A stretch of DNA of 64,000 nt from Pseudomonadota bacterium (GCA_040756035.1 JBFLZV010000005.1:147-64146), one strand, 5' to 3'; counted from the first letter of the stretch, positions 35,774 to 59,577 are shown. The notes: generated by a model from the letters alone, not told the origin. Translations and numbers: made by a program.

Positions 35774-37048
35774 ATGGGTGAAATCCGTCCGGCTGGGCAA
35801 ATAATAAAAGCATGTCTGTTCGGTGCGCTGTGCGTGGCGTCCTGGTCGAGCCAGGCTGCGCCGGAAAGCGCCGCGCAGGCTGACGTCATACAGCCCCACA
35901 TCTCCGCCAGCACCCTGCACGATAGCAATATATTCCGCCTTTCCAAGAGCAGTAATCCGCAGACCACGCTCGGCACCAGCGAAAAATCCGACACCGTCAA
36001 TCGTTTGGAGGCGGGCCTCGACGTCAACCTGCCGATCAGCCGGCAACGATTGCTGCTGGGCGCCAGCATAGGCCGTAATTGGTACGACCGCTTTAGTTTC
36101 CTGAATAACACCGACAAGAGGGCGAACGGCACGCTGCTGTGGGAAATCGGTAACCAGTGGAGCGGCGATCTCGGCACTACCTACGAAGAAACCATCGCCA
36201 GCTTCGGCGATTTGCAAACCCGGGTGCGCGATGAGATTACGCGCAAGAGAAATTTCGTCAACGCCGCCTATCTGTTCCATCCCAGTTGGCAACTGCACGG
36301 CGGCGTGGAAACCTACGACCTGGACCGCTCGCGCCTGCCCGACCGTAATCGCGAGGAAACGCTCAGCAAACTGGGCCTGCGCTACATCAGCCGCGCCGAC
36401 AACTATATCGACCTGGAAGCGCGCTACACCGACGCCGATTTCCCCAACCGCACCACGTCCGGGTCCTTATCCGGAACGGTGGGCCCCGGCGAGGAATTTT
36501 TACTGACAGTCACACCGATCGACAACGCTTTTGACCAGACCGAACTGCGCGGCGAAGTCGATTGGCGTTACAGCAAGTCGCACGTCAACGCGCGCCTGGG
36601 CTACTTGAAGCGCGATCACGAACAATTCCCGGCCCGCGATTTCAGCGGCGGCGTGGCGCGCCTGACCTACGACTGGAACATAACGGGCAAAACGCTGCTG
36701 AATTTCGCCGCATGGCGCGAAGTGCGCTCCACCGAAGACCTGCTTTCCAGTTATGTCGTGAGCAAGGGTTTTAGTTTCACGCCGACTTGGGATGCCACGT
36801 CCAAAATCAGTTTGCGGCTGCGGCTGGCGCGCGAAGAAGTGGATTTCCGCGGCGATCCCGGCGTGGCGGCGGGCGTGTCCACGCTCCGCGAAGACACGGT
36901 GCGCACCGCCACCTTGTCGCTCAACTACGCGCCGTTTGATAACACGCAATTTATTTTGGGCTATGAGAGGCAAAAGCGCGAATCGACGCGTAATCTCGCC
37001 GACTACACCTACGACAACGTAAACGCATCGGTGAGAGTGGATTTTTAA
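35774..37048 (+). CDS. PEP-CTERM-system-associated outer-membrane beta-barrel protein (TIGR03016-like)
   Basis: 424 aa. Signal peptide, alternating amphipathic beta-strand pattern, C-terminal aromatic residue (…VRVDF). First gene of the EPS locus. Confidence 0.55.
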   Translation: MGEIRPAGQIIKACLFGALCVASWSSQAAPESAAQADVIQPHISASTLHDSNIFRLSKSSNPQTTLGTSEKSDTVNRLEAGLDVNLPISRQRLLLGASIGRNWYDRFSFLNNTDKRANGTLLWEIGNQWSGDLGTTYEETIASFGDLQTRVRDEITRKRNFVNAAYLFHPSWQLHGGVETYDLDRSRLPDRNREETLSKLGLRYISRADNYIDLEARYTDADFPNRTTSGSLSGTVGPGEEFLLTVTPIDNAFDQTELRGEVDWRYSKSHVNARLGYLKRDHEQFPARDFSGGVARLTYDWNITGKTLLNFAAWREVRSTEDLLSSYVVSKGFSFTPTWDATSKISLRLRLAREEVDFRGDPGVAAGVSTLREDTVRTATLSLNYAPFDNTQFILGYERQKRESTRNLADYTYDNVNASVRVDF

Positions 37049-37216
37049 ATCACTACTCTTGACTTACCTTGATGGGGGAGCTAAGTTAGCAAGCACGAAC
37101 TGATAAATTACATTATGAAAAATATGTATCGTTAGCTTAACACTTCGCCGCAACACTCGGCGGGCTCAGCGCGTATAGCCGGTCCGCTTACCGATGAACG
37201 AATTTTCATATGGATA

Positions 37217-38887
37217 ATGAAAATGCTCACACAACATGGAACGTTGCACACCGATGTTTTTCCTCTCCCCTTACAAGCTGACGCGCCGGCGCTCATCGCC
37301 CCTTACGGCGGCGAACTGGTTAATTTGCTGGCCGATGAATCACAGGTCCAGCGCTTAAAACGGGAGGCCATCGCTCTCCCCTCCCTCGAACTCAATCCCT
37401 GGCAGCTCGCCGATCTGGAATTGCTGCTCAACGGCGGATTTTCGCCGCTGCGCGGTTTCATGAATCAAGCCGACTACGAGAGCGTGCTAAGTCGTATGCG
37501 CACCGGCGACGGCTTGTTTTGGCCCGTGCCGCTGGTGCTGGACGTCACCGCGGAAGCGGCTCGGCAACTCGCGCCGGAAAGCCGAGCCGCGTTACGCGAC
37601 GCGGAGGGCGTGTTGCTGGCGATACTCAATGTCAGCGACGTGTGGCAAGCGGATAAAGAGCGCGAGGCGCGCTTATTCCACGGCGCATCCGCTGCCGCTC
37701 GTCCCGGCGCGGTGCGGCCTAGGCGCGACTATTACGTGGGCGGCGCGGTGCAGGGTCTTGCGTTACCGGTGCGCTATGATTACCGCGCGCTGCGCCGGAC
37801 GCCCGCGCAATTACGCAAAGCGTTCACGGCGCGCGGCTGGACGCGCATCGCCGCTTTCCAGGCGGACGATCCGCTTCACGATGCGGCCCTCAGGGAAGCG
37901 CTGCGCGCGGCGCACCAGTGTGAGGCGAAATTACTGATCCATCCGCTCACCGGAACCCCAACCAGCGAGGACATCCATCACTTTCATCGCGTGCGCTGCT
38001 ATCAGAACATGGTGGCGCAACTTCCCAAATCAGAGGCCGCGCTGGCGCTGTTGCCGCTGGCGTCTCACCATGGCGCCGACGCGCGTACCACACTGTGGCA
38101 CGCCATTATTCACCGCAACCACGGATGCTCGCATTTTATCGCCGACACCGGCACGCTTGCACCGCGCATGGACGGCGTGCGCGCGGATGCCGAAGCGGCG
38201 CAAACGCCGGCGGCGCGTTGCCGGGAGCTTACCGGCGTCGAGTTGCTTCCCCTCGAAGCCATGGGGCGTGACGCAACTAATGCGGCGATCAACGTGTACA
38301 CCAGCCCATCGCTCGGCGATTGGCAGCCGCACAAACTTTATGTCCCGCGCGCCACGCGCGGCTTCACGGTGTTTTTCACGGGGCTGTCCGGCGCGGGAAA
38401 ATCCACATTGGCCAAGGCGCTCGCGGCGCACCTCATGGAATCGAGCGAACGCCAAGTGTCGTTGCTGGACGGCGACATTGTACGCAAACACCTCTCTAAC
38501 GAGCTGGGTTTCTCCAAAGAGCATCGAGACATCAACGTGCTGCGCATCGGTTACGTCAGCAGCGAAATCACCAAGCATCGCGGCATAGCCATTTGCGCGC
38601 CGATCGCTCCCTACCGGGCCACACGGCGCGCGGTGCGCGCCATGATCGAGCCGTACGGCGGATTTTTCGAAATCTACGTCGCCACCCCGCTCACGGTGTG
38701 CGAGCGGCGCGACGGCAAAGGGCTGTACGCCAAGGCGCGCGCCGGAATCATCAAGGAATTTACCGGTATCAGCGACCCGTATGAGACGCCCGAGTCTCCC
38801 GATTTGACGGTCGACACCTCGAATCAGTCGCCGGAACAAACGGTGCAGCGTATTCTGGATAAATTATGCGAGGAGGGTTTTATCTAA
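37217..38887 (+). CDS. cysC: adenylylsulfate (APS) kinase CysC with N-terminal motif-degenerate ATP-sulfurylase-like domain
   Basis: 556 aa. C-terminal APS-kinase P-loop GLSGAGKST, LLDGDIVR, and C-terminal FTGISDPYE. The N-terminal ~380 aa has the Sat fold, but canonical motifs are replaced: QTRN->QADD, HxxH->HDAA, GRDHAG->HRNHGC. Confidence 0.8.
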   Translation: MKMLTQHGTLHTDVFPLPLQADAPALIAPYGGELVNLLADESQVQRLKREAIALPSLELNPWQLADLELLLNGGFSPLRGFMNQADYESVLSRMRTGDGLFWPVPLVLDVTAEAARQLAPESRAALRDAEGVLLAILNVSDVWQADKEREARLFHGASAAARPGAVRPRRDYYVGGAVQGLALPVRYDYRALRRTPAQLRKAFTARGWTRIAAFQADDPLHDAALREALRAAHQCEAKLLIHPLTGTPTSEDIHHFHRVRCYQNMVAQLPKSEAALALLPLASHHGADARTTLWHAIIHRNHGCSHFIADTGTLAPRMDGVRADAEAAQTPAARCRELTGVELLPLEAMGRDATNAAINVYTSPSLGDWQPHKLYVPRATRGFTVFFTGLSGAGKSTLAKALAAHLMESSERQVSLLDGDIVRKHLSNELGFSKEHRDINVLRIGYVSSEITKHRGIAICAPIAPYRATRRAVRAMIEPYGGFFEIYVATPLTVCERRDGKGLYAKARAGIIKEFTGISDPYETPESPDLTVDTSNQSPEQTVQRILDKLCEEGFI

Positions 38888-38959: not shown

Positions 38960-40348
38960 ATGATTAGTGATGAACTACCGCATATCTCTCTCTGGGAGCG
39001 CTTGATAAATCCCGTGGTGGTGGTAAGCACTTTGCCGGCGGCAACGTTGTTCTACGGAAAGACGTTCGACGGTTACTATTTGGTGCTGGCCATCATCGTC
39101 TTTTTCATTTCATCACAGCTCTTCGAAAAAGTCACGCTGTTACGCTCACTGCGCAAGGTGCATCTTTTGACCCATGCGCAGGATATCCTCTTTGCATGGT
39201 CGACCGTCGTCGTCATCATTTTCATCCTGGGCTACGCAACCAAGCTCAATACCCAATACTCACAAGACGTTATTTTGCTGTGGCTGATCGCCTCTCCCAT
39301 AGCGTTGCTCGCGGCGCACGTCATTACCCGCGCTTGCCTCGCCAGACTTACGCGGCTGACCGATAAAAAGCGTAGCGTGGTCATCGCCGGCGCCAACGAA
39401 CTGGCCAGACAACTGGTAAAGACCATCAAAAACGAGCCTTATCTGGGCATGGAGATAAAGGGGCTGTTCGATGACCGCAGCCGCGAGCGCCTGAACGGCT
39501 GCAACGGCGAGATTGCGCTGTGCGGGCGCATCAAGGATTTGCCGGAATTCGTCGCCAAAAAGAAAATCAACATCATCTACATTACGCTGCCCATGTCGTC
39601 ACGCCCGCAGATCATGAAGCTGTTACAGGATTTGTATGACAGCACGGCGTCCATCTACTTCGTGCTCGATATTTTCGTCTTTGACCTCATTCAGCCGCGC
39701 ATCGACACCATTAAAGGCATACCGGTGGTGGCCATTTGCGAGAGCCCGTTTTGCGGCGTGAACGGCGTTATAAAGAACGCCAGCGACATACTCATCGCAG
39801 CCGTTATTTTACTGCTGATTTCACCATTGATGCTGTTAATCGCGTTGGGAGTGAAGCTAAGTTCGCCCGGGCCGGTGCTGTTCAAGCAGCGCCGTTACGG
39901 ACTGAACGGTGAAGAGATCAAGGTATATAAGTTCCGTACCATGACGGTGTGCGAAGACGGTGACTGCGTCGCGCAGGCAACCAAGAACGACCAGCGCGTG
40001 ACCCGCTTCGGCGCCTTCCTGCGCAAAACGTCGCTCGACGAACTGCCGCAGTTCATCAACGTGCTGCGCGGCGAAATGAGCATCGTCGGCCCGCGCCCGC
40101 ACGCGGTGGCGCACAACGAGCTGTACAGAAAATACATCCGAGGGTACATGCTGCGCCACAAGGTCAAGCCCGGCATCACCGGTTGGGCGCAGGTGCACGG
40201 TTTGCGCGGCGAAACAGAAACCATGGACAAGATGCGCGCACGCATCGATTACGACCTCGATTATTTAAGAAATTGGTCGTTGTCTCTGGACGTGTGGATA
40301 ATCATCAGAACCATCATGGTCATGTTCAAGCAACCCAATGCATATTGA
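38960..40348 (+). CDS. undecaprenyl-phosphate sugar phosphotransferase (EPS priming glycosyltransferase, WbaP/WcaJ/EpsB-2 family)
   Basis: 462 aa. N-terminal TM helices, central Rossmann-like domain, C-terminal bacterial sugar-transferase domain ([26 protein letters not shown]...SIVGPRP). Confidence 0.85.
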
Positions 40349-40409
40349 TGGTAAAGAGGGTTGTGCGAGCATTCTAGAGGGAGAGGTGCATATCAAGGGA
40401 GTATGCAAA

Positions 40410-41048
40410 ATGACAATAGTGAAGACTATGAAAGAAAGAGTGATGCAGGCATCGCGGGGTAAAAAGCTGGAGCACTTTTGCTCGCTTTACAAAGGCGGGA
40501 CCATACTCGACGTGGGTGTTTCATCTCACGCTCGTATCCAGCGGGAAAACCTATTTCTGGAGAAACTCAGGTACAGCCCGGAACTCTACACGGGACTGGG
40601 CGTGGAGGATTTGACCGAAATAGCCGCCGCGCATCCCGGCAAGCACTTTATTCGCTATGGCGGAGGCAGATTCCCGTTTAAGGATAAAGAGTTTGATTGG
40701 GCTCCCTCCAACGCCGTAATCGAGCAAGTCGGCGATGATAGTGCGCAGCTTTTGTTCATTAACGATATGCTGCGCGTGGCAAAGCAAGTATTCTTTGCAA
40801 CGCCTAATAAATTTTTCCACGTGGAAAGCCATACTAACGTTGTTCTGTTGCATCGGCTGCCTGGGCGAGTGTTTTATCAATGGCGCGATCGCCGTAAGAA
40901 GTATTGGGATGAAAACAATATTCGTTTGTTGGGCTATGGAAAGTTATGTAGCCTTATGAAGAATTCCAATGCAGAAACATACCGGATATATAAAAACCAT
41001 ATGTTCGGATGGCCCATGATGTTCACGGTTACTTGCACGGCCGCCTGA
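40410..41048 (+). CDS. putative SAM-dependent methyltransferase (lower-GC block)
   Basis: Start set at MTIVKT (AAGGGA RBS). GTILDVGVSSH resembles SAM-binding motif I. Local GC is markedly lower than the flanks. Confidence 0.45.
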   Translation: MTIVKTMKERVMQASRGKKLEHFCSLYKGGTILDVGVSSHARIQRENLFLEKLRYSPELYTGLGVEDLTEIAAAHPGKHFIRYGGGRFPFKDKEFDWAPSNAVIEQVGDDSAQLLFINDMLRVAKQVFFATPNKFFHVESHTNVVLLHRLPGRVFYQWRDRRKKYWDENNIRLLGYGKLCSLMKNSNAETYRIYKNHMFGWPMMFTVTCTAA

Positions 41049-41127
41049 TGAGCCATTTTAACGTGATCTAGTCAAGGGCATATTCCCTTGGGTTTGGTGG
41101 AAGACAAGGTTATACGGAGCGGTATTT

Positions 41128-41967
41128 ATGCCTACCATGCATGACGTATTGACGGAAGAAGAAATGTCCGAATTTAGGATAAATCCGGAAATTTCGAGAT
41201 ATTTGGAACTGGTTAGAGAGAAGTCGGGACTGGAAAAGGATCAATTCCGCATTTTGGATTGGGGATGCGGCCGGGGCCGGGCGGTGGGTTTGCTTAGAAA
41301 TCTCGGCTACGACGCTTACGGTGTGGATATTAGCCAGGAATTTTTGAGCAAGGGTAAGCAATATTTTATAAACAGGGAAGAAAATCCGGATGATTTTCTC
41401 TTTCTGATAAGCGAGGAGTGCAAGACGTGCTTCCACAATGATTTTTTTCACTTTATCTTCTCTTACCAAGTGCTCGAGCATGTGCAGGCTGTTGATCTTC
41501 TGTCCGAAGAAATAAGCAGGGTGTTGGCGCCGAACGGCGTATGTTTACACATCTATCCGGCTCACAAGCATATTATAGAAGGACATTTATTTATGCCTTT
41601 TGTCCACTGGCTGCCTAAAAGCGCTATACGGAAAGCAGCGATTTTAATGTTCGTGGCCCTCGGTATTGAGCCTCGCTGGCAGCGGTTGCAGGGTAAGGGC
41701 ATCCTCGAGAAAGCCAGGGCCTACTATGAGTTCAGCAAGAACGAGACGTTCTATCGCAGCTATGGCGTAAATAAGAATATCTTTGAGAAGAACGGCTTCA
41801 ACGTGGACTTCGTTACTATAGATAATCCACTGTTATATAAATACGGACCGCTTCGTAAATTAATGAAATTACCTTTCATTAAGAGACTGATTGGCTGGGG
41901 CTTGCTCAATTTTAAGTCGGTAGAGCTGTTGTTAACCAAGGGGAATCTACCGGTCGTCCGGCGTTGA
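41128..41967 (+). CDS. class I SAM-dependent methyltransferase
   Basis: 279 aa. Motif I ILDWGCGRGRAV, acidic motif II DAYGVDIS, motif III-like VLEHV. Lower GC. Confidence 0.65.
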   Translation: MPTMHDVLTEEEMSEFRINPEISRYLELVREKSGLEKDQFRILDWGCGRGRAVGLLRNLGYDAYGVDISQEFLSKGKQYFINREENPDDFLFLISEECKTCFHNDFFHFIFSYQVLEHVQAVDLLSEEISRVLAPNGVCLHIYPAHKHIIEGHLFMPFVHWLPKSAIRKAAILMFVALGIEPRWQRLQGKGILEKARAYYEFSKNETFYRSYGVNKNIFEKNGFNVDFVTIDNPLLYKYGPLRKLMKLPFIKRLIGWGLLNFKSVELLLTKGNLPVVRR

Positions 41968-42194
41968 GTTAGTGCCGCCGGCCTATTTTCTTTCTCTCAC
42001 AAGGCGACACATTTTGTCACATAGTGACGCATAGCCATCCCTCCGCACGTGCGCGGGTTGCGCATAATTTCCAACGCCGCGTCGAAAATAAACATAATTT
42101 TTGTTTTCAAAAACCGCTAATACCGCAGCAGGACTAGCTCTGCGCGCAAATTTCATTTCACCCGCCGGTTCTGGGTGGGTCTCGCATCCCTTTT

Positions 42195-42210
42195 TGGCAC
42201 GCATCATGCT
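42195..42210 (+). promoter_or_regulatory. sigma-54 (RpoN) -24/-12 promoter TGGCACG-N4-ATGCT
   Basis: TGGCACGCATCATGC. GG and GC are spaced exactly as in the consensus TGGCACG-N4-TTGCW. It lies 54 nt upstream of the secreted-protein start; predicted TSS ~42221. Confidence 0.5.
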
Positions 42211-42263
42211 CTTATCCTCCGCGAGAAGCAGGCAGCTTTTGTCTTGCATATTCGGAGGAGATT

Positions 42264-43274
42264 GTGATGAAGAATGTTATTTCCCGGCTCGCTTCTATGC
42301 TGTTGGGTCTTGTCTTAATAATGGGGGTGGCGGCGCCGGCGCAGGCCGCGTTCCCAAACAAGTATCATCCGGGTCACTACATGTTGACCTATTTCGGCGC
42401 CACAGAGCTTAACGCCTTTAAGCCTATTATTAATAATCCGAATTTTGTGGGTGTGCAGAAGCGCTACAAATGGCGCACCCTGGAGCCCACGCGCGGCAAA
42501 TACGATTTTTCCATGATTATCCGGGATCTTAATTATCTGCGCAGCTTACCTATGCCTAAGCGGCTAATTATCCAAGTTACCGTTACCGGAGATGAAAAGG
42601 GGCTGCCGCACGCCCCCGATTATTTGAGAACGCCTGAATTTGACGGCGGCGTATACACGTCAACGTTCCCAGTGCGCTACGTTAGGACCAAACAGTGGAA
42701 TACGGCCGTGCAGGATAGGCTCATAGCCCTGTTCCGCGCCTTAGGGGCGCGTTTTGACAAAGAGCCTTACTTCGAGGGCGTAGTGTTGGATGAAACCGCT
42801 ACGGGTATTCGTCTCCATCAGTGGACGGCGGCTAACTATACGGCCGAGAAGGCATATAATGGCCACAAACGCATCATGGCCGGCTTGAAGGCGGCCTTTC
42901 CGAATACTATGTGCATTCAATTCATTAATTTCTTTTCCGGTGCAAACGCTAAGGATGGATTGAATAAAATCGCCGGACTGATTCAATATGCGCATCAGAT
43001 CGGCATGGGCATCGGCGGCCCGGACATCCATGTGGGCGGCACCGAGCCGAGTTACCCTTACTTCACTACTTATAACGGCAGTATGCCGTTGACCGCCGCC
43101 GTACAGTGGGAAGACTACGACTGGGTCAGCCCCACGGGTAGCATCGCCACGGTGCCGAAAATTTTCGACTTCGCACGCAATAAATTGCACCTGAATTATA
43201 TCTTCTGGCTGCAAAGAGAGCCCTACTTCTCAACGCAAGTGGTGCCGCTGGTGCGGCGCATGGGCGCTCCTTAA
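42264..43274 (+). CDS. secreted hypothetical protein (possible polysaccharide-active TIM-barrel enzyme)
   Basis: 336 aa. Signal peptide ending AAPAQAAF. No diagnostic motif recognised. GGAGG RBS. Driven by the sigma-54 promoter above. Confidence 0.5.
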   Translation: MMKNVISRLASMLLGLVLIMGVAAPAQAAFPNKYHPGHYMLTYFGATELNAFKPIINNPNFVGVQKRYKWRTLEPTRGKYDFSMIIRDLNYLRSLPMPKRLIIQVTVTGDEKGLPHAPDYLRTPEFDGGVYTSTFPVRYVRTKQWNTAVQDRLIALFRALGARFDKEPYFEGVVLDETATGIRLHQWTAANYTAEKAYNGHKRIMAGLKAAFPNTMCIQFINFFSGANAKDGLNKIAGLIQYAHQIGMGIGGPDIHVGGTEPSYPYFTTYNGSMPLTAAVQWEDYDWVSPTGSIATVPKIFDFARNKLHLNYIFWLQREPYFSTQVVPLVRRMGAP

Positions 43275-43304
43275 GCGTAGGAGCCAAGGTTGGCAAGGGG
43301 GGGG

Positions 43305-43345
43305 GGGGCTTTGTCCCCCCCTTTGTTTTTTTCGGCTATGTTTCC
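43305..43345. terminator. bidirectional terminator with G12/C8 homopolymer stem and T-run
   Basis: GGGGGGGGGGGGCTTTGTCCCCCCCCTTTGTTTTTTTCGG between convergent genes (42264-43274 + and 43336-45609 -). Confidence 0.5.
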
Positions 43346-45609: not shown

Positions 45610-45618
45610 TTTGGTTAG

Positions 45619-45764: not shown

Positions 45765-45771
45765 TCCACGG

Positions 45772-50627: not shown

Positions 50628-52199
50628 TTAATTTCGATACAAAGCGTTTTTCTTATGGGCTTGTTTCTCCAGCCAGGCCAGCAATCCGAACGCCGTCATG
50701 AATATGAACATCGCCGGTGGCGCGTACGGTATGTCAGGGCGGTAGAATAGCGAAACGACAAACAGCGGTATAATTGCATGCAGTCCTCGAGCGAGGGATT
50801 TCTGCCACGGATTTAGATTATCGGAACGTGACAGCCTGCGCGCGGATCGATATCCACATATAATCAGCAGCAAGAAGGCGCAAAGGCCGAGGATTCCGGT
50901 TTCCCATAGAATAACGGCAGCGCCGCTGCCGTCTATGCGCAGCGGAACATAGCGCGCCGCAACGTTTCCGATTCCCAGCCCCTGCGTGCGCGAGGCGCCG
51001 AGTCCATGCCCGATTAACAGGCGGGCGTCTTTGTTGGTCTTGTGTTGTCCCCACCAGAATTCCAGAACTTCGCGGCGCGTCATAAGCCCCAGCTCGCGGT
51101 GCTCGACGCCGGCGCGTTTGTTGAAGCTGTAGCTCGACAGGTGTTTTATGTTGTCTTCGAGACTGCGCCCGGTGGCGGACCAGTGGAACGCCTGATAGGC
51201 GAGCAATACCACGCTCAGGGACAACACTACCAACAGGCTGCCCACGATGAATGAACCGGGCCGCTGATACAGATTGTCTTTGTACAAGATCAATAGGGCC
51301 AGCGGCAGGTAAATAAAAATAACTTTAACCTCCATGAGCAATAACGGGCTTCCGAGCAAGAATATCGCCAAACCGAGTTTACGCTTTGCGATTACGCCGT
51401 GCTTATAAAGGCTCAGCATCACAATAATCAGGATGACTAAATACAGCGCCAAGACGGCGGTAAGTCCGCCGGCCTCCATGCTGCCGCCGAACGTTCCGAC
51501 TACGCTGTCGGATGCCTCGACTGTGCCGAGTCCCATTTCCAGACGCGACGATCTTACGAACAGGTATTGATACAGCACCGGAATAAACTGCGCCAGTCCT
51601 ATAAGCGCAAAACCCAGCAGCCAACGCCTTACGGTGTCTTTATCGAGCGGCACAAGGGCGAGGGCGGCCCACACGCCGCCGAAAAGCAGGATGCTCTTCA
51701 TCGAGAGAATGATCTGCCACGTTGGAGGCCGGTTGATCAAGGTGGATAGCAGGGCGATTGCCAGCAACAGCCACGCGCTGGTTGCCGTTGAGGAAAGGCC
51801 CGTTCTGGCCGGGGCTTGGGAAAGGCGCGAGGTCACGGCCGGTACGAACAGCATGGCCGCCAAGCCGTAGGTAATCCACCATGCCTGGTGCAGGGTGGGT
51901 ATGAAATATTGCACCGTACCGGCCAGCACTAGGGTGCCGATCAGCGTCAGCCAGAGCAGCGTGACCGGCTGCGTGGATAGGAGTAATCCGGTTAGCGCGC
52001 CGGCGAATAATATTGTGTAGAGCGGTTGCCCGCTCGCGGCGAGGAGACCCATCATGGCGGCGCTGAATAGCGCCAACATATAAGGTCCGACATTCCACAA
52101 AATATCAGTGCGATTATTCACAGGGCGGCCTGATTCGGTAGACCATGCTTTGAGTTGATTACGAATTTGTATTTGACGGCCCGTTCCCAAATCGGCCAC
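50628..52199 (-). CDS. Wzy/O-antigen-ligase-family membrane protein (exosortase-system-associated)
   Basis: 523 aa, >10 TM helices with a large periplasmic loop. N-terminus overlaps the sulfotransferase gene by 82 nt, so the true start may be an internal Met (e.g. MLALFSAAMMG, ~52079). Confidence 0.6.
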   Translation of the reverse strand: MADLGTGRQIQIRNQLKAWSTESGRPVNNRTDILWNVGPYMLALFSAAMMGLLAASGQPLYTILFAGALTGLLLSTQPVTLLWLTLIGTLVLAGTVQYFIPTLHQAWWITYGLAAMLFVPAVTSRLSQAPARTGLSSTATSAWLLLAIALLSTLINRPPTWQIILSMKSILLFGGVWAALALVPLDKDTVRRWLLGFALIGLAQFIPVLYQYLFVRSSRLEMGLGTVEASDSVVGTFGGSMEAGGLTAVLALYLVILIIVMLSLYKHGVIAKRKLGLAIFLLGSPLLLMEVKVIFIYLPLALLILYKDNLYQRPGSFIVGSLLVVLSLSVVLLAYQAFHWSATGRSLEDNIKHLSSYSFNKRAGVEHRELGLMTRREVLEFWWGQHKTNKDARLLIGHGLGASRTQGLGIGNVAARYVPLRIDGSGAAVILWETGILGLCAFLLLIICGYRSARRLSRSDNLNPWQKSLARGLHAIIPLFVVSLFYRPDIPYAPPAMFIFMTAFGLLAWLEKQAHKKNALYRN

Positions 52200-53026
52200 G
52201 GCAGGGTGTCTCTGCCCAGCAAGTCCGCCAGATCCAAGACTTCACCGGTCAGCTCGCGTTCAAGATAACGCCTGGTTTCCGGTAGCATAGGCGGCGCAAG
52301 GCTGCGCAGCGAAACAGTGTTGGCGCGAAGTATGCCGGCAATCAATCGACTATGCTTCAGGCGCGCGACCGCTCCATGAAAGCCGGCATTGCGTCCCCAT
52401 CGAGCGGTTTCTTTAAATAACATGTTCAGGGATTGTAGGCGCGGCTTGCGGCTTTCATTGGCGCGCTTCTCGGCGAAGCTGGACGTGTGGCGGGCGTCTA
52501 TTTCGAGGAACTGATAAAGCCGCCGCGCCTGTTCATCGGCGGCAAGTTCGATTTCTTCCTGAAACATTACTAGAATCTGATCGCGCCGGAAACGCGCCAG
52601 CCAGCGCTTGAGGTGTGTGGCGTAGCGTGATTGTTCAAGGTACATGGGATTATTGGCGAGGCCGGCCTCGAAGCTCAGGTTGTCCCCTCGGTGGTGGCCC
52701 GCGCGAATCTCGTGGAGATGATTGGAATAAGCCCTCTCCAGGGGATCGCGCAACGCTACGATGATTTTAAAATGCGGGTTGTACTGCCATGCACGCAGCG
52801 GCGCTTCGCTGTCGTAAAAGTACGAAGGTGAGATTTCTCCGGCCGCGATGCAGCCGCCAAGGTCGAAGTGCCGCTCATACCATTGAAAGCCGCGATCGTA
52901 GTAGTGGGAGAAAAAATCGAGTTCCTTGGGCGTGCTGACGCAAACCTGCGGGTGATCCTGCAGGATGCGGTGTATCCACGTGGAGGCGCACTTCTGCGCC
53001 CCGATGCCGAGGTACGTGGGCTTCAT
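52118..53026 (-). CDS. sulfotransferase (PAPS-dependent)
   Basis: 302 aa. 5'-PSB motif GIGAQKCASTW (K-x-x-T-W type), 3'-PB motif VALRDPLERAYS. Confidence 0.75.
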   Translation of the reverse strand: MKPTYLGIGAQKCASTWIHRILQDHPQVCVSTPKELDFFSHYYDRGFQWYERHFDLGGCIAAGEISPSYFYDSEAPLRAWQYNPHFKIIVALRDPLERAYSNHLHEIRAGHHRGDNLSFEAGLANNPMYLEQSRYATHLKRWLARFRRDQILVMFQEEIELAADEQARRLYQFLEIDARHTSSFAEKRANESRKPRLQSLNMLFKETARWGRNAGFHGAVARLKHSRLIAGILRANTVSLRSLAPPMLPETRRYLERELTGEVLDLADLLGRDTLPWPIWERAVKYKFVINSKHGLPNQAAL

Positions 53027-53709
53027 GCCTTGTGGACTCCCAGCAGTCGCGCAAGGGCCGGCTCACTCAGCGCGGACAGCAGCGCGTCGAGAAACTCCTG
53101 TTGCAGCCGGTAGGCCGCGTCGGCGTCGTTGCCGATGCTGGATACGCGCATCAGCAGGCCGTCCGGAATGCGTCCGCTCAAGCTGTAACGCATTTGCGCG
53201 AGTTTCTGTTGCAGGCCGCTGATCACCACTCGGTCGCCGGTGGTGATCCAGTACGTGATCGGTTCGACGCGCTCGCCGCGCACGGCGATCAACCGGCGCG
53301 CCGGAACTTGGCGCTGCGCGACGCGCAGTACCGTGTCATGGCGCCGGCTGATTTGAAAACCTTGCACGGCGTAACAGGTCTCCGGGCGGTGTACACGCAG
53401 CGTGTCGCTTTGGTCGCCGCCGTATGCGATGGACAGCATTACGCGCATGCCGCGGCCGTCGACATAGATGCGCGCCAGCGTCTGCTGATAATATTTTGCG
53501 ATCGTGGCCTGCGCGGCCGGGTTCACCATGAGCGGCCGGATGCTTTGGTCCTCGCGCCACGCGCCGAATTGCCTGGGGATTAAACTTTCCAAATCCCCGG
53601 GTGATCTTTGCGCCGCCAGCTTTTGCGTGGGCGTCAGCAGCAAGGCCAAGCCGGCCGCCGTAAACAGCGCCATGCTCACCCACCAGGATTTTACGCCGCA
53701 CGCATTCAC
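53023..53709 (-). CDS. epsI: EpsI-family exosortase-associated protein
   Basis: 228 aa. N-terminal signal/TM. Overlaps the exosortase stop by 4 nt, the usual exosortase-EpsI pairing. Confidence 0.7.
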   Translation of the reverse strand: MNACGVKSWWVSMALFTAAGLALLLTPTQKLAAQRSPGDLESLIPRQFGAWREDQSIRPLMVNPAAQATIAKYYQQTLARIYVDGRGMRVMLSIAYGGDQSDTLRVHRPETCYAVQGFQISRRHDTVLRVAQRQVPARRLIAVRGERVEPITYWITTGDRVVISGLQQKLAQMRYSLSGRIPDGLLMRVSSIGNDADAAYRLQQEFLDALLSALSEPALARLLGVHKA

Positions 53710-54581
53710 GCCGTGCGCCCCCTATTTACCGCGGAAAGCATCTGATCCATTAAAAAGAGGCAGGACAGAGTGATGCTAAATTCTACGAGACCCGCGAGGT
53801 CGTGTAGAAAACCCTGTCCCGCCTCATCGCCCAAATGGTAAGTGACGAGCACCAGCGCTATCACGCGCAAGGTGTTGGCCAGCAGCGCGATAGGCAGGAT
53901 ACCGATGAGTAAGGCGGCGTTGTGCCAAGTGCTCATCCGCCCGCGTAAATGGATGAACAGCGCGCCCAAGGCGCTCAGCGCAAACAACGAATAAATGCCG
54001 GAACAGGCATCGTCGACCAACAGCTGATAAGGGCCGATGCTCAGCGTTACGCCGCTGCGCGCCACGGGATAGCCGAACCAGTAAAGCAATTGTTCGGCCC
54101 ACAGAGAGATATAATGCTTAAGCGGGCCGGTGAAATAATCGATGATGAACGAGGGCAGGGGCACGAGGAACACTAAAAACATTACCGGAAACAAAAGTTC
54201 ACGCAGCGTCTTTGCGCCCTTGAGGAGCAGGATAACGCCGCTGAATACCGCGAGCTGCGATCCCACCTCCAGGAGCAGAATATCCTGGGAGCGCCCCAGC
54301 ACGTACATTAGCAATCCCGGCCCGAGCAACAGTGCGCCGAGCGTCGTGCGCTGCGCATCGTCCGCCAGGAGCAGCGCGCGGCGTTTTTTCCACAGCAGAC
54401 CCAGCGCCACGACGAGTATGATGAAGCCGTGCGCGTATTCCGGTTTTTGCCACGCCCCGGTGGCTAGCTTGAAATAAGTGGGCGCGTAAAGCGCCGCCAA
54501 GCCGAGCGCCACCGGCCACGCGGCGCCCGCGCCGATAAGGCGATGCGGCAAGGTCGGCGTAATGTTGATGGCGGCCGTCAT
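53706..54581 (-). CDS. xrtA: exosortase (XrtA-type)
   Basis: 291 aa, 8 TM helices. Catalytic Cys motif DDACSGIYSL and conserved Arg motif LANTLRVIAL. Confidence 0.8.
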   Translation of the reverse strand: MTAAINITPTLPHRLIGAGAAWPVALGLAALYAPTYFKLATGAWQKPEYAHGFIILVVALGLLWKKRRALLLADDAQRTTLGALLLGPGLLMYVLGRSQDILLLEVGSQLAVFSGVILLLKGAKTLRELLFPVMFLVFLVPLPSFIIDYFTGPLKHYISLWAEQLLYWFGYPVARSGVTLSIGPYQLLVDDACSGIYSLFALSALGALFIHLRGRMSTWHNAALLIGILPIALLANTLRVIALVLVTYHLGDEAGQGFLHDLAGLVEFSITLSCLFLMDQMLSAVNRGRTA

Positions 54582-54652: not shown

Positions 54653-55549
54653 TTAAAATTGGTTGAACACCGCACCGGCCACTTCCACGTTGGCCGCTCT
54701 TATTCTCTTGAGAAAATTTTTCGCTCGGGCAAGGTGCGTCGTATTCTTGCGCACCACCACCAGCGCCGTGGCGTACGCGGCGGCGGCCTGCGCCATGATA
54801 GCCTGGGCGTCGGCGTTATACTCGCCCGCCGGCGTGTCGATCAGGATGGCGTCGTAGTGATTGGATAATTCGTGCATCAACTGGCCAAAGGCGGCGCGGC
54901 TCAGCAGTTCCAACGGATTCGGCGGGATAGGACCGGCGGTCAACACGGAAAGATTCATAAAAAACGGCACGTTCTGTATGGTCTCGGCGCCCATGCGGCC
55001 GCTCAGCACGGTGGACAAGCCGATACCGTTGTTCAAGTTGAAAATGTTGTGCTGCCGCGGATTGCGTAAGTCGGCGTCGATGAGCAGGGTGTTGCCGCCG
55101 AGCTGCGCAAAGGCCACGGCGAGATTGGCGGCGACGTAGCTGCGGCCCTCGCCGCGCTCCGGGCTGATCACCACCCGCGTCTTGTATTCCACGCTGAACT
55201 TGCGCAGCAGCAACTGATTGCGCAGGCTGCGCAGCGCCTCGGATTGCGGGCTGAACGGTTCGTAGGCGGCGACCAGTTCTTTACTGAAGTCGCCGTCCTG
55301 TTTCTCCAGATAGGGATACTCGAACTGGCGGGCCAAGGCGAACTGAATGTCTTGCTTGGACAGCAGGCGCAGCTTGAGCGCCGCCTCGCCGAAGCGTACG
55401 CCGCGCTCTTTTTGGAAGCGCGCGATACGCTCGGCGTTTTCCTGCTTGAGCCTGCCGGCATCCATGAGAATTTTGCCGATGCTGCGGTCGTGAGTGCTGA
55501 CCACCATGCGCGGCGCATTGGAGCGGCTGTTCAATAAGGGCTGGTTCAT
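54653..55549 (-). CDS. BY-kinase-like P-loop ATPase (PEP-CTERM-locus tyrosine autokinase family)
   Basis: 298 aa. Walker A SPERGEGRSYVAANLAVAFAQ, Walker A' LLIDADLR, Walker B AILIDTPAG. Confidence 0.7.
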   Translation of the reverse strand: MNQPLLNSRSNAPRMVVSTHDRSIGKILMDAGRLKQENAERIARFQKERGVRFGEAALKLRLLSKQDIQFALARQFEYPYLEKQDGDFSKELVAAYEPFSPQSEALRSLRNQLLLRKFSVEYKTRVVISPERGEGRSYVAANLAVAFAQLGGNTLLIDADLRNPRQHNIFNLNNGIGLSTVLSGRMGAETIQNVPFFMNLSVLTAGPIPPNPLELLSRAAFGQLMHELSNHYDAILIDTPAGEYNADAQAIMAQAAAAYATALVVVRKNTTHLARAKNFLKRIRAANVEVAGAVFNQF

Positions 55550-55574: not shown

Positions 55575-55725
55575 GGAAACTCTGAAAATTCCATCCATGG
55601 AATTTTCAGAGACGAAAAACGAAAATGTGTTTTCGTTTCTCTTCATTTTTCAATCGCCCGAAGCGATTGAAAAATAGCGATGCATCCCTGCGCTGCAAAA
55701 TCTCTGAATAAATTCAGAGATTTCC
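55575..55725. repeat. Modular palindromic intergenic element, family 1, copy D (P5-P4-P3-P2-P1, inverted relative to copy C)
   Basis: CTCTGAAAATTCCATCCATGGAATTTTCAGAG perfect palindrome, GAAAAACGAAAATGTGTTTTCGTTTCTC, TTTTCAATCGCCCGAAGCGATTGAAAA, GCATCCCTGCGCTGCAA, AATCTCTGAATAAATTCAGAGATTTCC. Abuts the wzz stop. Confidence 0.65.
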
Positions 55726-57161
55726 TAGGCGGCACGGAGTAGACGCTCCAGGCCGGGTATAAATTTTCCTGGATGCTTCTTCGCCTTTACATTGGCCTGT
55801 CTCTTGACCAGCACGCCAACCACGGGCAGCCCCAGGTCCTCGCTCACATCTTCCTCGGAGCGGATGTAGCGGTTGGCCATTTCGGTCATCAGTGCCAGCC
55901 CCACCCCAAGAAGACCGCCGAAGAAAATGGCCAAAGCGACATTCAGCAGAGCCTTCGGATGCGATGGTTCGATCGGCTCGATGGCCGGCGTGAGCAGCGT
56001 CACGTTGGTTTGGCTTAGCTGGCTTTCCATGTTGGTTTCGTTGAAGCGCTGCAACGCCGTGTCATAGGCGCGCTGCGCGTTTTCTACGTCGCGCATGAGC
56101 ACGGAAATATCGTCGCGCTGCTTGCGCAACTCCAGGACGCGCGCCTTTTGCGCAGCGAGCATGGCCTTCAGGGCTGCTTCGCGCTGCGTGGCGAGCTGCG
56201 CGTTGTTGACGATTCCGCCCGTAGCATTGATGATTTCCGCGTTTATTTTTTTGCGCATATTCTCGATGTCCGCGAGCGCACGCTGATACTGCGGATGATT
56301 TTTGCCTACCCCGGATAATTCCGAAAGCCGCGCCTCTTGTCTGGCCAGCTCGGCCTTTAGACCTTGAATATAGGGATTGGCGATGACCTCCGGCAGAGAC
56401 TCCAGCGCAATGCCCTTGTCCGGAGAACTCTGCGCCTGGTTTTGGCGCGACAACGTATCCTGGGTTTGCGCCTGCGCAGTAACCAACTGCGTGGAAAGTT
56501 CCGCCAGCCGAGCGTTCTCGATATCCAAGCGCTCATCGGTCGCTACGATGCCGTTTTGTTGCTGATAGGACGATAGCTTGGTCTGCGCCGTTTCCAAATT
56601 ACTCCGCAATATTTTTAGCTGTTCGTTGAACCAGCCGGCCACTTCGCGCGCCGGCTCGATGCGCAATTCCAAGCTGGTTTTTATATAAGCCTGCGCAAAG
56701 GCGTTGGCCACGGCGCTGGCGAAGCGCGGATCGGTGGAGGTATAGCTTAAATTGATCATGCTGCTGTCGGCGGAGGGTTCCACTTCGACATCTTTTAGAA
56801 GCATGTCGGCCAACCAATCGCGGATGGAACCTCTCCCCTCTGTCGCCTTCTCGAACTGCTCCTGTGCGTCGGGGTTGGCGTCGAGCTGTAGGCTGTCCAC
56901 CACCTTCAGGGCCACCCGATGGCTCAAGAGAATATCCTTCTGCGTAGCCATCTGACCGGACAGTAACTGCGCGTGCGGCGCCGTGCCGGCGCCGGTGATC
57001 GGATCGCTGTGCTTGAAATCCACCACGAGCTGCACGTTCGCCGTGTAGGATTTCGGCAGCAAATAACTGACGAGAGCGGCGGAGGCCACGGTTACGACCA
57101 GGGTGAATAAAACAATCCACACGCGGGCGCGTAATATAAGTAAAAGTCTTTGCAGATTCAT
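55725..57161 (-). CDS. polysaccharide chain-length determinant protein (Wzz/PCP family, PEP-CTERM-locus subtype)
   Basis: 478 aa. N- and C-terminal TM helices flanking a long coiled-coil periplasmic domain. Confidence 0.8.
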   Translation of the reverse strand: MNLQRLLLILRARVWIVLFTLVVTVASAALVSYLLPKSYTANVQLVVDFKHSDPITGAGTAPHAQLLSGQMATQKDILLSHRVALKVVDSLQLDANPDAQEQFEKATEGRGSIRDWLADMLLKDVEVEPSADSSMINLSYTSTDPRFASAVANAFAQAYIKTSLELRIEPAREVAGWFNEQLKILRSNLETAQTKLSSYQQQNGIVATDERLDIENARLAELSTQLVTAQAQTQDTLSRQNQAQSSPDKGIALESLPEVIANPYIQGLKAELARQEARLSELSGVGKNHPQYQRALADIENMRKKINAEIINATGGIVNNAQLATQREAALKAMLAAQKARVLELRKQRDDISVLMRDVENAQRAYDTALQRFNETNMESQLSQTNVTLLTPAIEPIEPSHPKALLNVALAIFFGGLLGVGLALMTEMANRYIRSEEDVSEDLGLPVVGVLVKRQANVKAKKHPGKFIPGLERLLRAA

Positions 57162-57188: not shown

Positions 57189-57989
57189 CTAGAACAGGCT
57201 TTCCTTCACGTATACCACGTCATCGGCCTGCAATGCGTCGGTTAGGCCAACCTGCAGCGTCTGCTGCTGGCCGTCGGCGCCGCGCCGGTTTATCTTCAAT
57301 CCGCGTTCCGTGCCGCGTTCCGATAGTCCGCCGCCCATGGACAGCGCCTGCATAACCGTCATGTTGCGCTCCAAGCGGTAGGCGCCGGAACGCTGCACCT
57401 CGCCGTAAATGTAAAACACCGGGGCGCGCGGAATGTAGATAATGTCGCCGTCGGAAACCTGAATGTTATTTTTCAAACTTGCGGAGTGAAACAAGTCGGC
57501 CAGATCGATATCGTACTTGACGGTTTTTCCGCCCTCATGCTTGATGAGCGTAACGTAATCCGCCCCGTTCTCGCCCACACCGCCGGCCAGTGAAATAAGA
57601 TCGAGCACGGCGGCGCCCGGGCCGTCGATGGGGTATTTGCCCGGTTTGCTGACTTGGCCAAGCACCGAAACCTGCTGACTGCGGTATTCCATAATGCTGA
57701 TGTTGACTTGTGGCTGCTCGACGTAACCGCCCTGCTTCAACAACGTCGCCAGTTTCGCTTCCGCCGCACTGCGCGACAGCCCGCCGACCGTCACTTCGCC
57801 GAGCAGCGGGAAGGTGACATTGCCGGCTCCCGTCAACTGCGTTTCGGTGGTCATGTCGGGATGTTCGTACACGGTGATTTTCACGATATCGCCGGGACCC
57901 AATTTATATTCATCCACCGCATACGTCGGCGCGACGGCGAGCATAAGTGCGAAGCCTACAAAATAGAGTAATGATTTCAGAACTTTCAT
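57189..57989 (-). CDS. polysaccharide export protein (Wza/EpsA-like, PEP-CTERM-system-associated)
   Basis: 266 aa. Signal peptide. YKLGPGDIVKITVYEHPD Poly_export motif, SLBB domain. Confidence 0.85.
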   Translation of the reverse strand: MKVLKSLLYFVGFALMLAVAPTYAVDEYKLGPGDIVKITVYEHPDMTTETQLTGAGNVTFPLLGEVTVGGLSRSAAEAKLATLLKQGGYVEQPQVNISIMEYRSQQVSVLGQVSKPGKYPIDGPGAAVLDLISLAGGVGENGADYVTLIKHEGGKTVKYDIDLADLFHSASLKNNIQVSDGDIIYIPRAPVFYIYGEVQRSGAYRLERNMTVMQALSMGGGLSERGTERGLKINRRGADGQQQTLQVGLTDALQADDVVYVKESLF

Positions 57990-58030
57990 GATTGCACCCC
58001 TGAGTATCTGTAATGAAAAATTAAACCCGG

Positions 58031-58933
58031 TTACTTGTTGCCTTGCGGCGTGTCCACTACCAGCGTCTGCCGCGCTGCGGCAGGCTGGATGTGAGCAAAC
58101 TTTCCTACGTACTCAATCGACGCCATGCTGCGCAGGCGTTGCAGCTCACGGCGCACGGCCTCTTTGCGCTTCTCATTCAACAGAAAACCCTCTATCAGCG
58201 GAAACGCCTGCGCCTCGCTGAGAGGATGTTCAACGGCATCGACGAGTTCGAATACCGTGGAATCAGAATCTTCCTTGATAAACAAAATTTCTCCCTTTCC
58301 CATGGGATAAATTTTTTCTAATAGCTCGAAAGGCAGCATCCCCGCCGGCTTCATGACGCTCATTTCTTGAAACGGAATATTTTGCATGCGCAGCCAAGCG
58401 GTAATTTCATCGGCGGATTGCAGCGTGCGCACTTTTTCATCGAGCACGGGCGTCAACGCGGAGCTTTTCCACGTGATGCTGCGCAGCGTGTAAATCTTGC
58501 TTTTGGAAAATAGTTCGGGATGGCCGGTAAAGTAACTTTTTATTTCCTCGCGCGTGGGTTGCGGCACACTGGAGGTGCGCCTGCTCAAATACGCCTGCGC
58601 TAGGATTTGCTGTTCGGCCTTGGCAAAGCTGCGCAACACGTGCGGATCGCGATGTAAGTTCTCGGCGCGCGCCTTTTGCGCGGCGAGATTTTGATCGATC
58701 AGCGCATCGACTATTTGCAGAGAAGGTTTTTCCGAATTTGCGTCGATTTCCGCGCCCAGCAAGGCAATCTCATCATTGACTTGATGAATGGTGATTTCCT
58801 CGCCGTTCACCCTCACGACGCTTTGGCTTGCGACGCGCGGCTTTTCCGGGCGCTGTTCGCACCCGCCGGCGGTAAGCAGCAGTGCGGCGCATAACAGCGG
58901 CGCGCTGTATTTTGAATGTGTATTCCTAATCAT
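58031..58933 (-). CDS. epsD: EpsD-family lipoprotein, SurA/PPIase-like
   Basis: Start set at MIRNTHSKYSAPLLCAALLLTAGGC (lipobox LTAGGC). SurA-N-like chaperone domain. Confidence 0.6.
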   Translation of the reverse strand: MIRNTHSKYSAPLLCAALLLTAGGCEQRPEKPRVASQSVVRVNGEEITIHQVNDEIALLGAEIDANSEKPSLQIVDALIDQNLAAQKARAENLHRDPHVLRSFAKAEQQILAQAYLSRRTSSVPQPTREEIKSYFTGHPELFSKSKIYTLRSITWKSSALTPVLDEKVRTLQSADEITAWLRMQNIPFQEMSVMKPAGMLPFELLEKIYPMGKGEILFIKEDSDSTVFELVDAVEHPLSEAQAFPLIEGFLLNEKRKEAVRRELQRLRSMASIEYVGKFAHIQPAAARQTLVVDTPQGNK

Positions 58934-59094
58934 GTGCAACAGATCCCCGGTTGCAAACCCCAAAGAAATGTTCGACCCGGCGCGGCTAGTGTGCCCGCCG
59001 CCGGGTGAACAATGGACGTCCCTGTCCTGTTACCTCGCCGTTGTTCCCTAGGCGAGTGTCCACTCATGCTCTCCCTATGGCCGCGTGGCGATCG

Positions 59095-59577
59095 TTAAGC
59101 CAATCCGAGCTTGGGCGCCGACCTGGCGCTGCGACGTAACTGATAAGCGATCAAACCCAACCCCACCAACAATAACGCCCACTCATGGGGCTCGGGTACG
59201 GGGGGTACAGGAACCGTACCTTCAAAGATTAATGATTTTCCTAATACACCGGCAAAATGGTTGCCGCTTCCGTTGGCTCGGAATATAAAACTTCCGGGAC
59301 CTTCATGGCTTCTTATAATGTTGTAGCCGCCGTTACCGTTGCTTGTCCCGACCCAAAAACCTAAAAACGTACGCGCGGGATTATAATTAGTGACGGTTAG
59401 CTTAACTTCGTAAAGACCATCCAGGTTGCCCACGTTAAAGTCACTGTTAATGATCTTCCAGATGTTTAGCTTGACAGTGTTTGAGTGATGTGAATTGTTT
59501 GCAGCTTGCGCCGTGCCGGCGAGTGAAATGAACAAACTTACAATAACTGCTTTCCATAGCATGTTCGTTTTATTCAT
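59095..59577 (-). CDS. PEP-CTERM sorting-domain protein (exosortase substrate)
   Basis: 160 aa. Signal peptide. C-terminal VPEPHEWALLLVGLGLIAYQLRRSAR = PEP motif + TM helix + basic cluster. Confidence 0.8.
   Translation of the reverse strand: MNKTNMLWKAVIVSLFISLAGTAQAANNSHHSNTVKLNIWKIINSDFNVGNLDGLYEVKLTVTNYNPARTFLGFWVGTSNGNGGYNIIRSHEGPGSFIFRANGSGNHFAGVLGKSLIFEGTVPVPPVPEPHEWALLLVGLGLIAYQLRRSARSAPKLGLA

Follow-up and report, generated by a model that had tools for sequence, protein, structure and literature searches.

A predicted sulfation cassette in the variable region of an exosortase-B exopolysaccharide locus from an uncultured betaproteobacterium-like host

The window analysed here, 64 000 nucleotides from a Pseudomonadota bacterium (GCA_040756035.1; JBFLZV010000005.1:147–64146), contains an exopolysaccharide (EPS) locus that runs uninterrupted over positions 35774–59577 (~24 kb), as judged from an open reading frame (ORF) listing and hidden Markov model (HMM) scans. 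We consider it likely that this is a Wzx/Wzy-dependent, exosortase-B EPS locus with a sulfation cassette as its variable middle, and that its product is sulfated. The reading is carried by the identities of the genes, the integrity of their motifs, the coupling of the operon and the recurrence of the cassette in other genomes. The gene signature of a sulfated-EPS cluster, namely assembly and export genes, sulfotransferases and a gene for the supply of 3′-phosphoadenosine 5′-phosphosulfate (PAPS), is found together here. The original prediction for this DNA had described an exosortase-linked EPS locus with a CysC-type kinase gene and two sulfotransferases of the PAPS type, and had expected a sulfated product. 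That outline stands, and its coordinates and almost every gene call, including the positions of both sulfotransferases, proved accurate.

The genes form two convergent sets, a left arm on the plus strand and a right arm on the minus strand, which meet at a hairpin (43292–43327). The left arm comprises EpsL, a 556-residue kinase protein, a WcaJ-type transferase, a 236-residue ORF, an S-adenosylmethionine (SAM) methyltransferase and a secreted 336-residue ORF. The right arm begins with a PEP-CTERM protein, EpsD, EpsE, EpsF, EpsG, the exosortase and EpsI, and continues with the sulfotransferase ST2, a polytopic Wzy-like protein, a family 2 glycosyltransferase (GT2), the sulfotransferase ST1, a family 4 glycosyltransferase (GT4), Wzx and a secreted protein resembling glycoside hydrolase family 42 (GH42). 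The sulfation genes are as follows; here and below each HMM score is separated from its cut-off by a slash, and APS is adenosine 5′-phosphosulfate.

48622–49542, minus strand: ST1, PAPS-dependent sulfotransferase of the Sulfotransfer_3 type, 306 residues (PF13469 81.2/27)
52118–53026, minus strand: ST2, PAPS-dependent carbohydrate sulfotransferase, 302 residues (PF00685 53.9/22)
37217–38887, plus strand: APS kinase with a degenerate ATP-sulfurylase-like N-terminal domain, 556 residues (PF01583 194/21.1; TIGR00455 194.9/138.7)

Conservation in ST1 and ST2 was scored over 120 homologues of each, and both enzymes keep the motifs of the 5′-phosphosulfate-binding (5′-PSB) and 3′-phosphate-binding (3′-PB) sites on which the original prediction depended. 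In ST1 these are GTGRCGSS (5′-PSB) and RDGRAVANS (3′-PB), and in ST2 they are GAQKCAST and RDPLERAYS (an RDPxxRxxS 3′-PB motif); all are invariant or nearly so. The conserved positions are Gly8, Gly10–Ser14 (the 5′-PSB loop), Pro68-Ser69-Glu70, His121-Lys122 and Arg146…Ser154 (3′-PB) in ST1, and Lys12, Lys34-Glu35-x-x-Phe38-Phe39 and Arg93-Asp94-Pro95…Arg98…Ser101 in ST2. A candidate catalytic base is retained across the homologues of each enzyme. Both sequences open directly with strand 1 and the P-loop, with no signal peptide and no membrane segment, and both enzymes are predicted to be cytoplasmic. The ST1 ATG at 49542 overlaps the GT2 stop codon; a longer, 359-residue ORF starting at 49701 was rejected, as the homologues are of ~291 residues and the public call is of 306. 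ATGA start/stop overlaps couple EpsI to ST2 and GT2 to ST1, and the APS kinase gene is flanked on its own strand by EpsL, 168 bp upstream, and by the priming transferase, 72 bp downstream.

The closest sequence matches of ST2 in the PDB are heparan sulfate 3-O-sulfotransferase (3-OST) and N-deacetylase/N-sulfotransferase (NDST), with E-values of ~1e-13. In a fold search with its AlphaFold2 (AF2) model (predicted local distance difference test, pLDDT, of 93.4), the top 21 PDB matches are heparan sulfate sulfotransferases together with the bacterial structure 3RNL (TM-scores of at most 0.80), and other sulfotransferase classes are separated from them by some three orders of magnitude in E-value. 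As modelled, ST2 is structurally a heparan-sulfate-type carbohydrate sulfotransferase. The ST1 model (pLDDT of 89.5) also has a sulfotransferase fold. Its best PDB matches, by sequence as well as by fold, are the human and tick tyrosylprotein sulfotransferases (TPSTs), and its 3′-PB sequence IRDGRAVANS resembles the TPST motif VRDGRASVHS. One might therefore suppose that ST1, or both enzymes, sulfate tyrosine or glycans on one or more XrtB-sorted PEP-CTERM proteins, the more so as a PEP-CTERM gene heads the operon. The TPST matches are weak, however (E ~1e-8, TM-score 0.54, 17–20% identity), and are closely trailed by the curacin polyketide synthase sulfotransferase (CurM) and the mycobacterial glycolipid sulfotransferases Stf1 and Stf9, so that the fold does not name the acceptor of ST1 and similarity at this level (TM-score ~0.54) is uninformative for that purpose; ST1 is a generic Sulfotransfer_3 enzyme. 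Moreover, PEP-CTERM proteins are exported but ST1 lacks a signal peptide, and in two other contigs (L089 and L090; L numbers denote the loci and contigs compared) ST1-family genes lie between glycosyltransferase genes with no exosortase or PEP-CTERM gene seen in 20 kb. We regard sulfation of protein as very unlikely, and sulfation of PEP-CTERM glycoproteins found no specific support.

The PAPS-supply gene encodes a protein with a PUA-like, a sulfurylase-like and an APS-kinase domain. The kinase domain carries the P-loop GLSGAGKST together with the LLDGD and FTG motifs, and with both kinase families passed the earlier label of a CysC-type APS kinase is functionally right. The canonical sulfurylase motifs QxRN, HxxH and GRD are all lost: QTRN, HRAH and VGRDHAG of the active Penicillium enzyme are replaced by QADD, HDAA and IADTGTL, and ~30 residues are deleted from this domain relative to a homologue. 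A bifunctional Sat/CysC assignment was rejected on the missing motifs and on the scores (NF004040 637.3/669; sulfurylase TIGR00339 228.3/322.95), and this easily made annotation error can be corrected to an APS kinase whose sulfurylase domain is dead. With the sulfurylase motifs lost, the locus is predicted to encode the step from APS to PAPS only. The description of the gene as the locus's own sulfate-activation gene thus holds for the kinase step and fails for the sulfurylase; judged by these motifs, APS must be supplied from outside the locus.

The best PDB match of the 556-residue protein is 3CR8 (E 1.7e-134), the two-domain APS kinase of Thiobacillus denitrificans, which has no sulfurylase activity according to the accounts of Gay, Segel and Fisher (2009) given in PMC13213808 and PMC4373884. 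In both proteins a PUA-like domain is joined to a sulfurylase-like domain devoid of catalytic motifs and to an APS kinase domain of the active type. The window protein differs in being more degenerate (QADD/HDAA versus QARQ/HRAQ) and in having ~30 fewer sulfurylase-like residues, and its activity is predicted. Among the 150 nearest 50%-cluster representatives, all three sulfurylase motifs are absent from 107 and present in 26, while the kinase motifs are kept in almost all of those inspected; a kinase joined to a dead sulfurylase is therefore a common architecture.

The degenerate domain with its ~30-residue deletion, and the two ORFs for which no family was recognized, could alternatively be taken as marks of decay or silence, in which case no sulfated product would be made. 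We give this idea hardly any credence. All of the ORFs of the locus are intact, and conservation extends to the catalytic and PAPS-binding motifs. The degenerate domain represents a stable architecture that is widespread and has an active kinase homologue of known structure, and several independent sequencing runs yielded identical XrtB–EpsI–ST2 contigs.

The class of the locus was decided with the curated NCBIfam cut-offs for the XrtB/Eps set as opposed to the XrtA set. The backbone genes and their scores are as follows.

35774–37048, plus strand: EpsL, XrtB-associated outer-membrane protein (TIGR03014 334.6/275)
53023–53709, minus strand: EpsI, B-type exosortase-associated (NF045609 280.7/220)
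53706–54581, minus strand: exosortase B, XrtB (TIGR03113 303.2/275)
54653–55549, minus strand: EpsG, tyrosine autokinase of the bacterial tyrosine kinase type (TIGR03029 340.5/313.8)
55725–57161, minus strand: EpsF, Wzz-like chain-length determinant (TIGR03017 557.1/422.75)
57189–57989, minus strand: EpsE, Wza-like outer-membrane polysaccharide export protein (TIGR03028 327.4/262.65)
58031–58963, minus strand: EpsD family protein, peptidyl-prolyl isomerase-like (TIGR02925 169.8/108.9)
59095–59577, minus strand: small secreted PEP-CTERM protein (PF07589 23.1/20.7)

The locus belongs to the exosortase-B (methanolan-type Eps) class and not to XrtA, because the backbone proteins pass the XrtB/Eps cut-offs and fail their XrtA counterparts. 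This replaces the XrtA label of the original prediction: the exosortase falls below the cut-off for XrtA (TIGR03109 152.1/208), as it does for XrtV (274/313), and the protein described as a TIGR03016-like barrel scores 22.9/90.85 with that family and is EpsL. XrtA-type assignments were likewise rejected for the priming transferase (TIGR03013 227.1/393.35), Wzz (TIGR03007 124/278.85), the kinase (TIGR03018 85.7/230.65) and the exporter (TIGR03027 109/180). The exosortase carries the DACSG and NTLRV motifs, with Cys193, Arg239 and His260 invariant in an alignment with 20 homologues, and an identical protein is annotated by NCBI as exosortase B. Its closest relative in species-representative genomes, from Burkholderiales, Thiobacillus or Hydrogenophilales, shares only 57% identity with it.

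The protein at 59095–59577 ends in the only PEP-CTERM tail within the window, VPEPHEWALLLVGLGLIAYQLRRS, which comprises the PEP motif, a hydrophobic helix and Arg-Arg. It is presumed to be the substrate of XrtB, and an orthologue occupies the equivalent position in L085. The motif itself, PEPHEWA, is of the 'PEPxxWA' flavour (NF035944 29.4/35 in the window and 39.5/35 for the L085 orthologue at 2129–2572), yet the exosortase passes the XrtB and not the XrtV cut-off. Residues 24–75 of EpsG give a sub-threshold match to an MshE-type cyclic di-GMP-binding family (NF053729 24.9/38), a hint that export may be under cyclic di-GMP control.

To place the locus among its relatives, 80 XrtB loci from species-representative genomes were compared with flanks of ±10 kb. 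Sulfotransferases were sought with HMMs made for the ST1 and ST2 families, and the count refers to the 57 loci in which 8 kb or more of sequence lies downstream of XrtB. Eight of these 57 have sulfotransferase-like ORFs within 10 kb of XrtB: three from Thiobacillus, one each from Sulfuritalea and Rubrivivax, two from Burkholderiales metagenome-assembled genomes (MAGs) and one from a MAG labelled Gammaproteobacteria. Pfam agreed for all four of the ORFs that were re-checked. An ST1 orthologue (46% identity) is found among the XrtB loci only in a Rubrivivax MAG. The XrtB locus of a Burkholderiales/Nitrosomonas MAG (L092) has two sulfotransferases. Beside a Thiobacillus XrtB locus (L004), positions 1169–3190 encode a 674-residue protein in which a SEC-C motif, TPR repeats and a Sulfotransfer_3 domain are fused, and at least one other sulfotransferase is present in this locus.

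The block ST2 – Wzy-like – GT – ST1 – (GT4) – Wzx – secreted hydrolase is found again, at 43–60% identity, on another XrtB backbone (L085) and on an XrtA-like backbone (L088). The gene order in L085 is that of the window, running from type II secretion genes through PEP-CTERM, EpsD–G, XrtB, EpsI, ST2, the Wzy-like protein, GT4 and ST1 to a GT4-like gene, at 42–72% identity; the block ends there with the contig. In L088 the cassette comprises ST2 (55% identity), the Wzy-like protein (50%), GT4, ST1 (56%), Wzx (43%) and the hydrolase (47%), while the backbone is only 22–30% identical to EpsF and EpsG of the window and has its best scores with families of the XrtA type, narrowly below the cut-offs (TIGR03007 262.8/278.85, TIGR03018 190.1/230.65, TIGR03015 287.2/324.5). 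Across the window, L085 and L088 the cassette is thus better conserved than the backbones that carry it. The G+C content is 0.48–0.54 over 40–50 kb (positions 40001–50000, the variable part), compared with ~0.60–0.65 in the housekeeping flanks, which suggests horizontal acquisition of the cassette. Taken together, the conservation above that of the backbones and the dip in G+C point to the exchange of the cassette as a module between loci.

The families themselves are large. At E ≤ 1e-5, and among the candidates scored, ST2 has 903 relatives and ST1 has 2230. In every context examined these relatives stand among genes for glycosyltransferases, GT4 enzymes included, in most cases accompanied by genes for Wzx, Wzy, Wzz or a Wzc-type kinase, and a single cluster may hold up to seven sulfotransferases. 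In an Azospirillum contig (L087) they lie beside cysD, cysNC and sulfate ABC-transporter genes. On these comparisons the sulfation genes appear as a reusable cassette that occurs in many other environmental bacteria. The arrangement had been called unusual, which is moderately true at most, given sulfotransferases in eight of 57 XrtB loci, the cassette on other backbones and families of hundreds to thousands of members. In two further contigs (L091, 10001–11694; L092, 10001–11671) an ST2-family gene is followed at once by a PF01522 polysaccharide deacetylase, a pair that resembles the animal NDST divided over two genes. Three more sulfotransferases and a heparinase II/III-like gene are present in L091.

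A kinase gene of this kind is rarer, being found within 10 kb of XrtB in one of the 80 loci, L002, from a Hydrogenophilales MAG. There (10904–13611) XrtB is followed by a DHHA1-domain protein (a weak Pfam match, just under the cut-off) and then by a T. denitrificans-type APS kinase, the sulfurylase motifs of which are also degenerate (QAGQ/HRPQ). L002 has no sulfotransferase within 10 kb, and the XrtB loci of T. denitrificans itself (L024, L040) have neither kinase nor sulfotransferase within that distance. A homologous kinase beside XrtB without a sulfotransferase nearby would suit the proposal that the sulfation genes are mere neighbours of the EPS genes, that they serve another acceptor (lipopolysaccharide or O-antigen, lipid or a small molecule) and that the kinase belongs to ordinary sulfur assimilation. 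Polysaccharide loci are indeed mosaics, and the lower G+C content of the 40–50 kb region suggests acquired DNA. The sulfotransferases are, however, translationally coupled to EpsI and GT2 and embedded among the Wzy-like, GT, Wzx and hydrolase genes in an order that is conserved across three backbones, and the kinase is placed between EpsL and the priming transferase. Another acceptor is therefore unlikely in our estimation.

With a sulfated EPS as the preferred reading, the following pathway can be proposed. The WcaJ-type transferase would prime undecaprenyl phosphate, and GT4, GT2 and possibly other enzymes would assemble the repeat unit at the cytoplasmic face of the membrane. The dedicated APS kinase would turn APS, from housekeeping sulfate activation encoded elsewhere, into PAPS, from which ST1 and ST2 would each add a sulfate ester (or, less likely, an N-sulfate) to the lipid-linked repeat unit; the methyltransferase may methylate it. 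PAPS is a cytoplasmic metabolite, and signal peptides and membrane segments are absent from both sulfotransferases, so that sulfation of the undecaprenyl-diphosphate-linked unit before it is flipped would be the parsimonious order; both the timing and this choice of acceptor are what we infer from the gene set. Wzx would then flip the decorated unit and the Wzy-like protein would polymerize it, with EpsF, EpsG, EpsE and EpsL governing chain length and export and the secreted hydrolase-like protein trimming or releasing the polymer, which would itself carry sulfate. In parallel, XrtB and EpsI would process the adjacent PEP-CTERM protein, which would become part of the same matrix.

Several observations weigh against this interpretation. 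The nearest solved structures to ST1 are, if weakly, protein-tyrosine sulfotransferases; a search of the rest of the window for cys genes found none; the Wzy candidate and the 236-residue and 336-residue ORFs are all without family support; and the host is an uncultured MAG.

The remaining features of the variable region are as follows.

38960–40348, plus strand: priming polyprenyl-phosphate hexose-1-phosphate transferase, WcaJ type (TIGR03023 537.2/410.75)
40338–41048, plus strand: 236-residue ORF without an assigned family (no NCBIfam, Pfam or PDB match)
41128–41967, plus strand: SAM-dependent methyltransferase (PF08241 55.8/21.2)
42264–43274, plus strand: secreted 336-residue ORF (N-terminal signal-like segment, one hydrophobic segment, no family match)
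43292–43327, between the convergent gene sets: terminator-like G/C-rich hairpin with a T-run (stem of 14 pairs)
43336–45609, minus strand: secreted glycoside-hydrolase-like protein, weak GH42/GH5 similarity (PF02449 32.5/21)
45772–47355, minus strand: Wzx-type flippase (PF01943 35.3/28.2; ~11 hydrophobic segments)
47424–48635, minus strand: GT4 glycosyltransferase (sub-threshold to several GT4 families)
49539–50603, minus strand: GT2 glycosyltransferase with C-terminal membrane segments (sub-threshold GT2 matches; three hydrophobic segments)
50628–52079, minus strand: polytopic membrane protein, candidate Wzy polymerase (~9 hydrophobic segments, conserved position)

Of the two methyltransferases originally predicted, the one at 41128–41967 stands, while for the ORF at 40338–41048 the Pfam, NCBIfam and PDB searches returned nothing, leaving the second call unconfirmed. 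The Wzy/ligase-like protein at 50628–52079 (483 residues in the public gene call) found no family in NCBIfam or Pfam, leaving that call unconfirmed; its hydrophobic segments and its conserved position after EpsI/ST2 in 12 of the 80 XrtB loci, as well as in L085 and L088, suggest a Wzy polymerase. The glycoside hydrolase at 43336–45609 was correctly described as secreted, in that a signal peptide is present; besides its weak GH42 similarity it matches a β-galactosidase in the PDB (1.7e-4) and has relatives at 47% identity in L088 and 40% in L057 and L027. GT4 shares 50% identity with its L085 counterpart. For the 336-residue ORF the family searches gave no match and non-significant hints of GH35; a homologue (28% identity) adjoins an ST1-family gene in L089. 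The hairpin contains a run of ~12 G residues that pairs with a run of C, a homopolymer that could be prone to slippage.

Upstream of the PEP-CTERM gene is a very A+T-rich intergenic stretch of 285 bp (59578–59862), which probably serves the long minus-strand operon as its promoter or regulatory region; among the genes of the locus no regulator was identified. The right flank (59863–63450) holds the type II secretion genes gspK, gspL and gspM and an N-like ORF of 270 residues, abutting the PEP-CTERM end of the locus, and this neighbourhood is also kept in L085 (3–1661). The left flank carries Hsp20 and OsmY-like genes together with QueC/E, Tol-Pal, RuvAB, NadA and AspS, positions 1–35 kb being housekeeping; both flanks are unrelated to the locus.

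Sulfated polysaccharides are valued biomaterials, and they are treated as rare in bacteria outside the cyanobacteria (PMC8205485). Sulfated glycoconjugates are nevertheless reported to be common in the EPS of granular sludge and are routinely measured in that of wastewater granules, where the responsible genes are not known (PMC10483923). The two sulfotransferase families and the kinase-only PAPS branch are candidates for such genes, and they come from betaproteobacterial lineages typical of wastewater-granule-like habitats. Both types of exosortase locus can harbour a sulfation cassette, which matters for models in which flocs are assembled from PEP-CTERM proteins and an anionic matrix. It is conceivable, if rather doubtful, that the cassette is a horizontally exchanged 'sulfated repeat-unit' module on XrtB and XrtA-like backbones which, together with the very large ST1 and ST2 families, underlies the sulfated glycosaminoglycan-like polymers that chemical analysis detects in sludge granules and other environmental biofilms and to which no genes have so far been assigned, with ST2 relatives and their paired deacetylases acting as a split bacterial NDST. 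In the literature searched, full-text co-mentions of exosortase or PEP-CTERM with sulfotransferases were merely incidental, and no description was found of a sulfation module inside exosortase loci, of a kinase-only PAPS branch in that context or of the recurring ST2 – Wzy-like – GT – ST1 – Wzx – hydrolase cassette.

Among known systems, the methanolan-type eps locus of Methylobacillus sp. 12S, reportedly described by Yoshida in 2003, shares with the window the EpsD-E-F-G-H(XrtB)-I core, EpsL, a variable Wzx/Wzy region and an adjacent PEP-CTERM substrate; the window adds two sulfotransferases in the variable region and the APS kinase in the left arm. Disruption of EpsH in that strain did not stop polysaccharide synthesis (Haft 2006, PMC1569441), which fits a protein-sorting role of the exosortase in parallel to EPS assembly. 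The synechan xss cluster of Synechocystis sp. PCC 6803 is likewise a Wzx/Wzy-type EPS cluster with two sulfotransferases of different subfamilies, and its sulfated product is proven chemically and genetically (PMC8205485). It differs in being cyanobacterial and plasmid-borne and in having neither exosortase/PEP-CTERM genes nor a gene for PAPS supply. The capsule cluster of Vibrio sp. KMM 8419, with a chemically proven sulfated capsular polysaccharide, has extra PAPS-synthesis genes and several sulfotransferases, a combination that its authors call the hallmark of sulfated polysaccharide synthesis (PMC11641403). It resembles the window as a proteobacterial polysaccharide cluster with both kinds of gene and differs in its Kps ABC-transporter export, its full cysNDC set, where the window has the kinase alone, and its lack of an exosortase. 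ST2 shares with the heparan sulfate 3-OST and NDST enzymes the fold, the 5′-PSB lysine, the glutamate of ExxFF and the RDPxxRxxS 3′-PB motif; it is bacterial, ~20% identical and without a membrane segment, whereas the animal enzymes are membrane-anchored, and it has no deacetylase partner in the window, although its relatives in L091 and L092 have one adjacent. Clusters that join polysaccharide assembly to sulfotransferases are thus already known from Synechocystis and, with PAPS-synthesis genes added, from Vibrio; what the literature searched does not describe is the exosortase setting, the kinase-only branch and the cassette.

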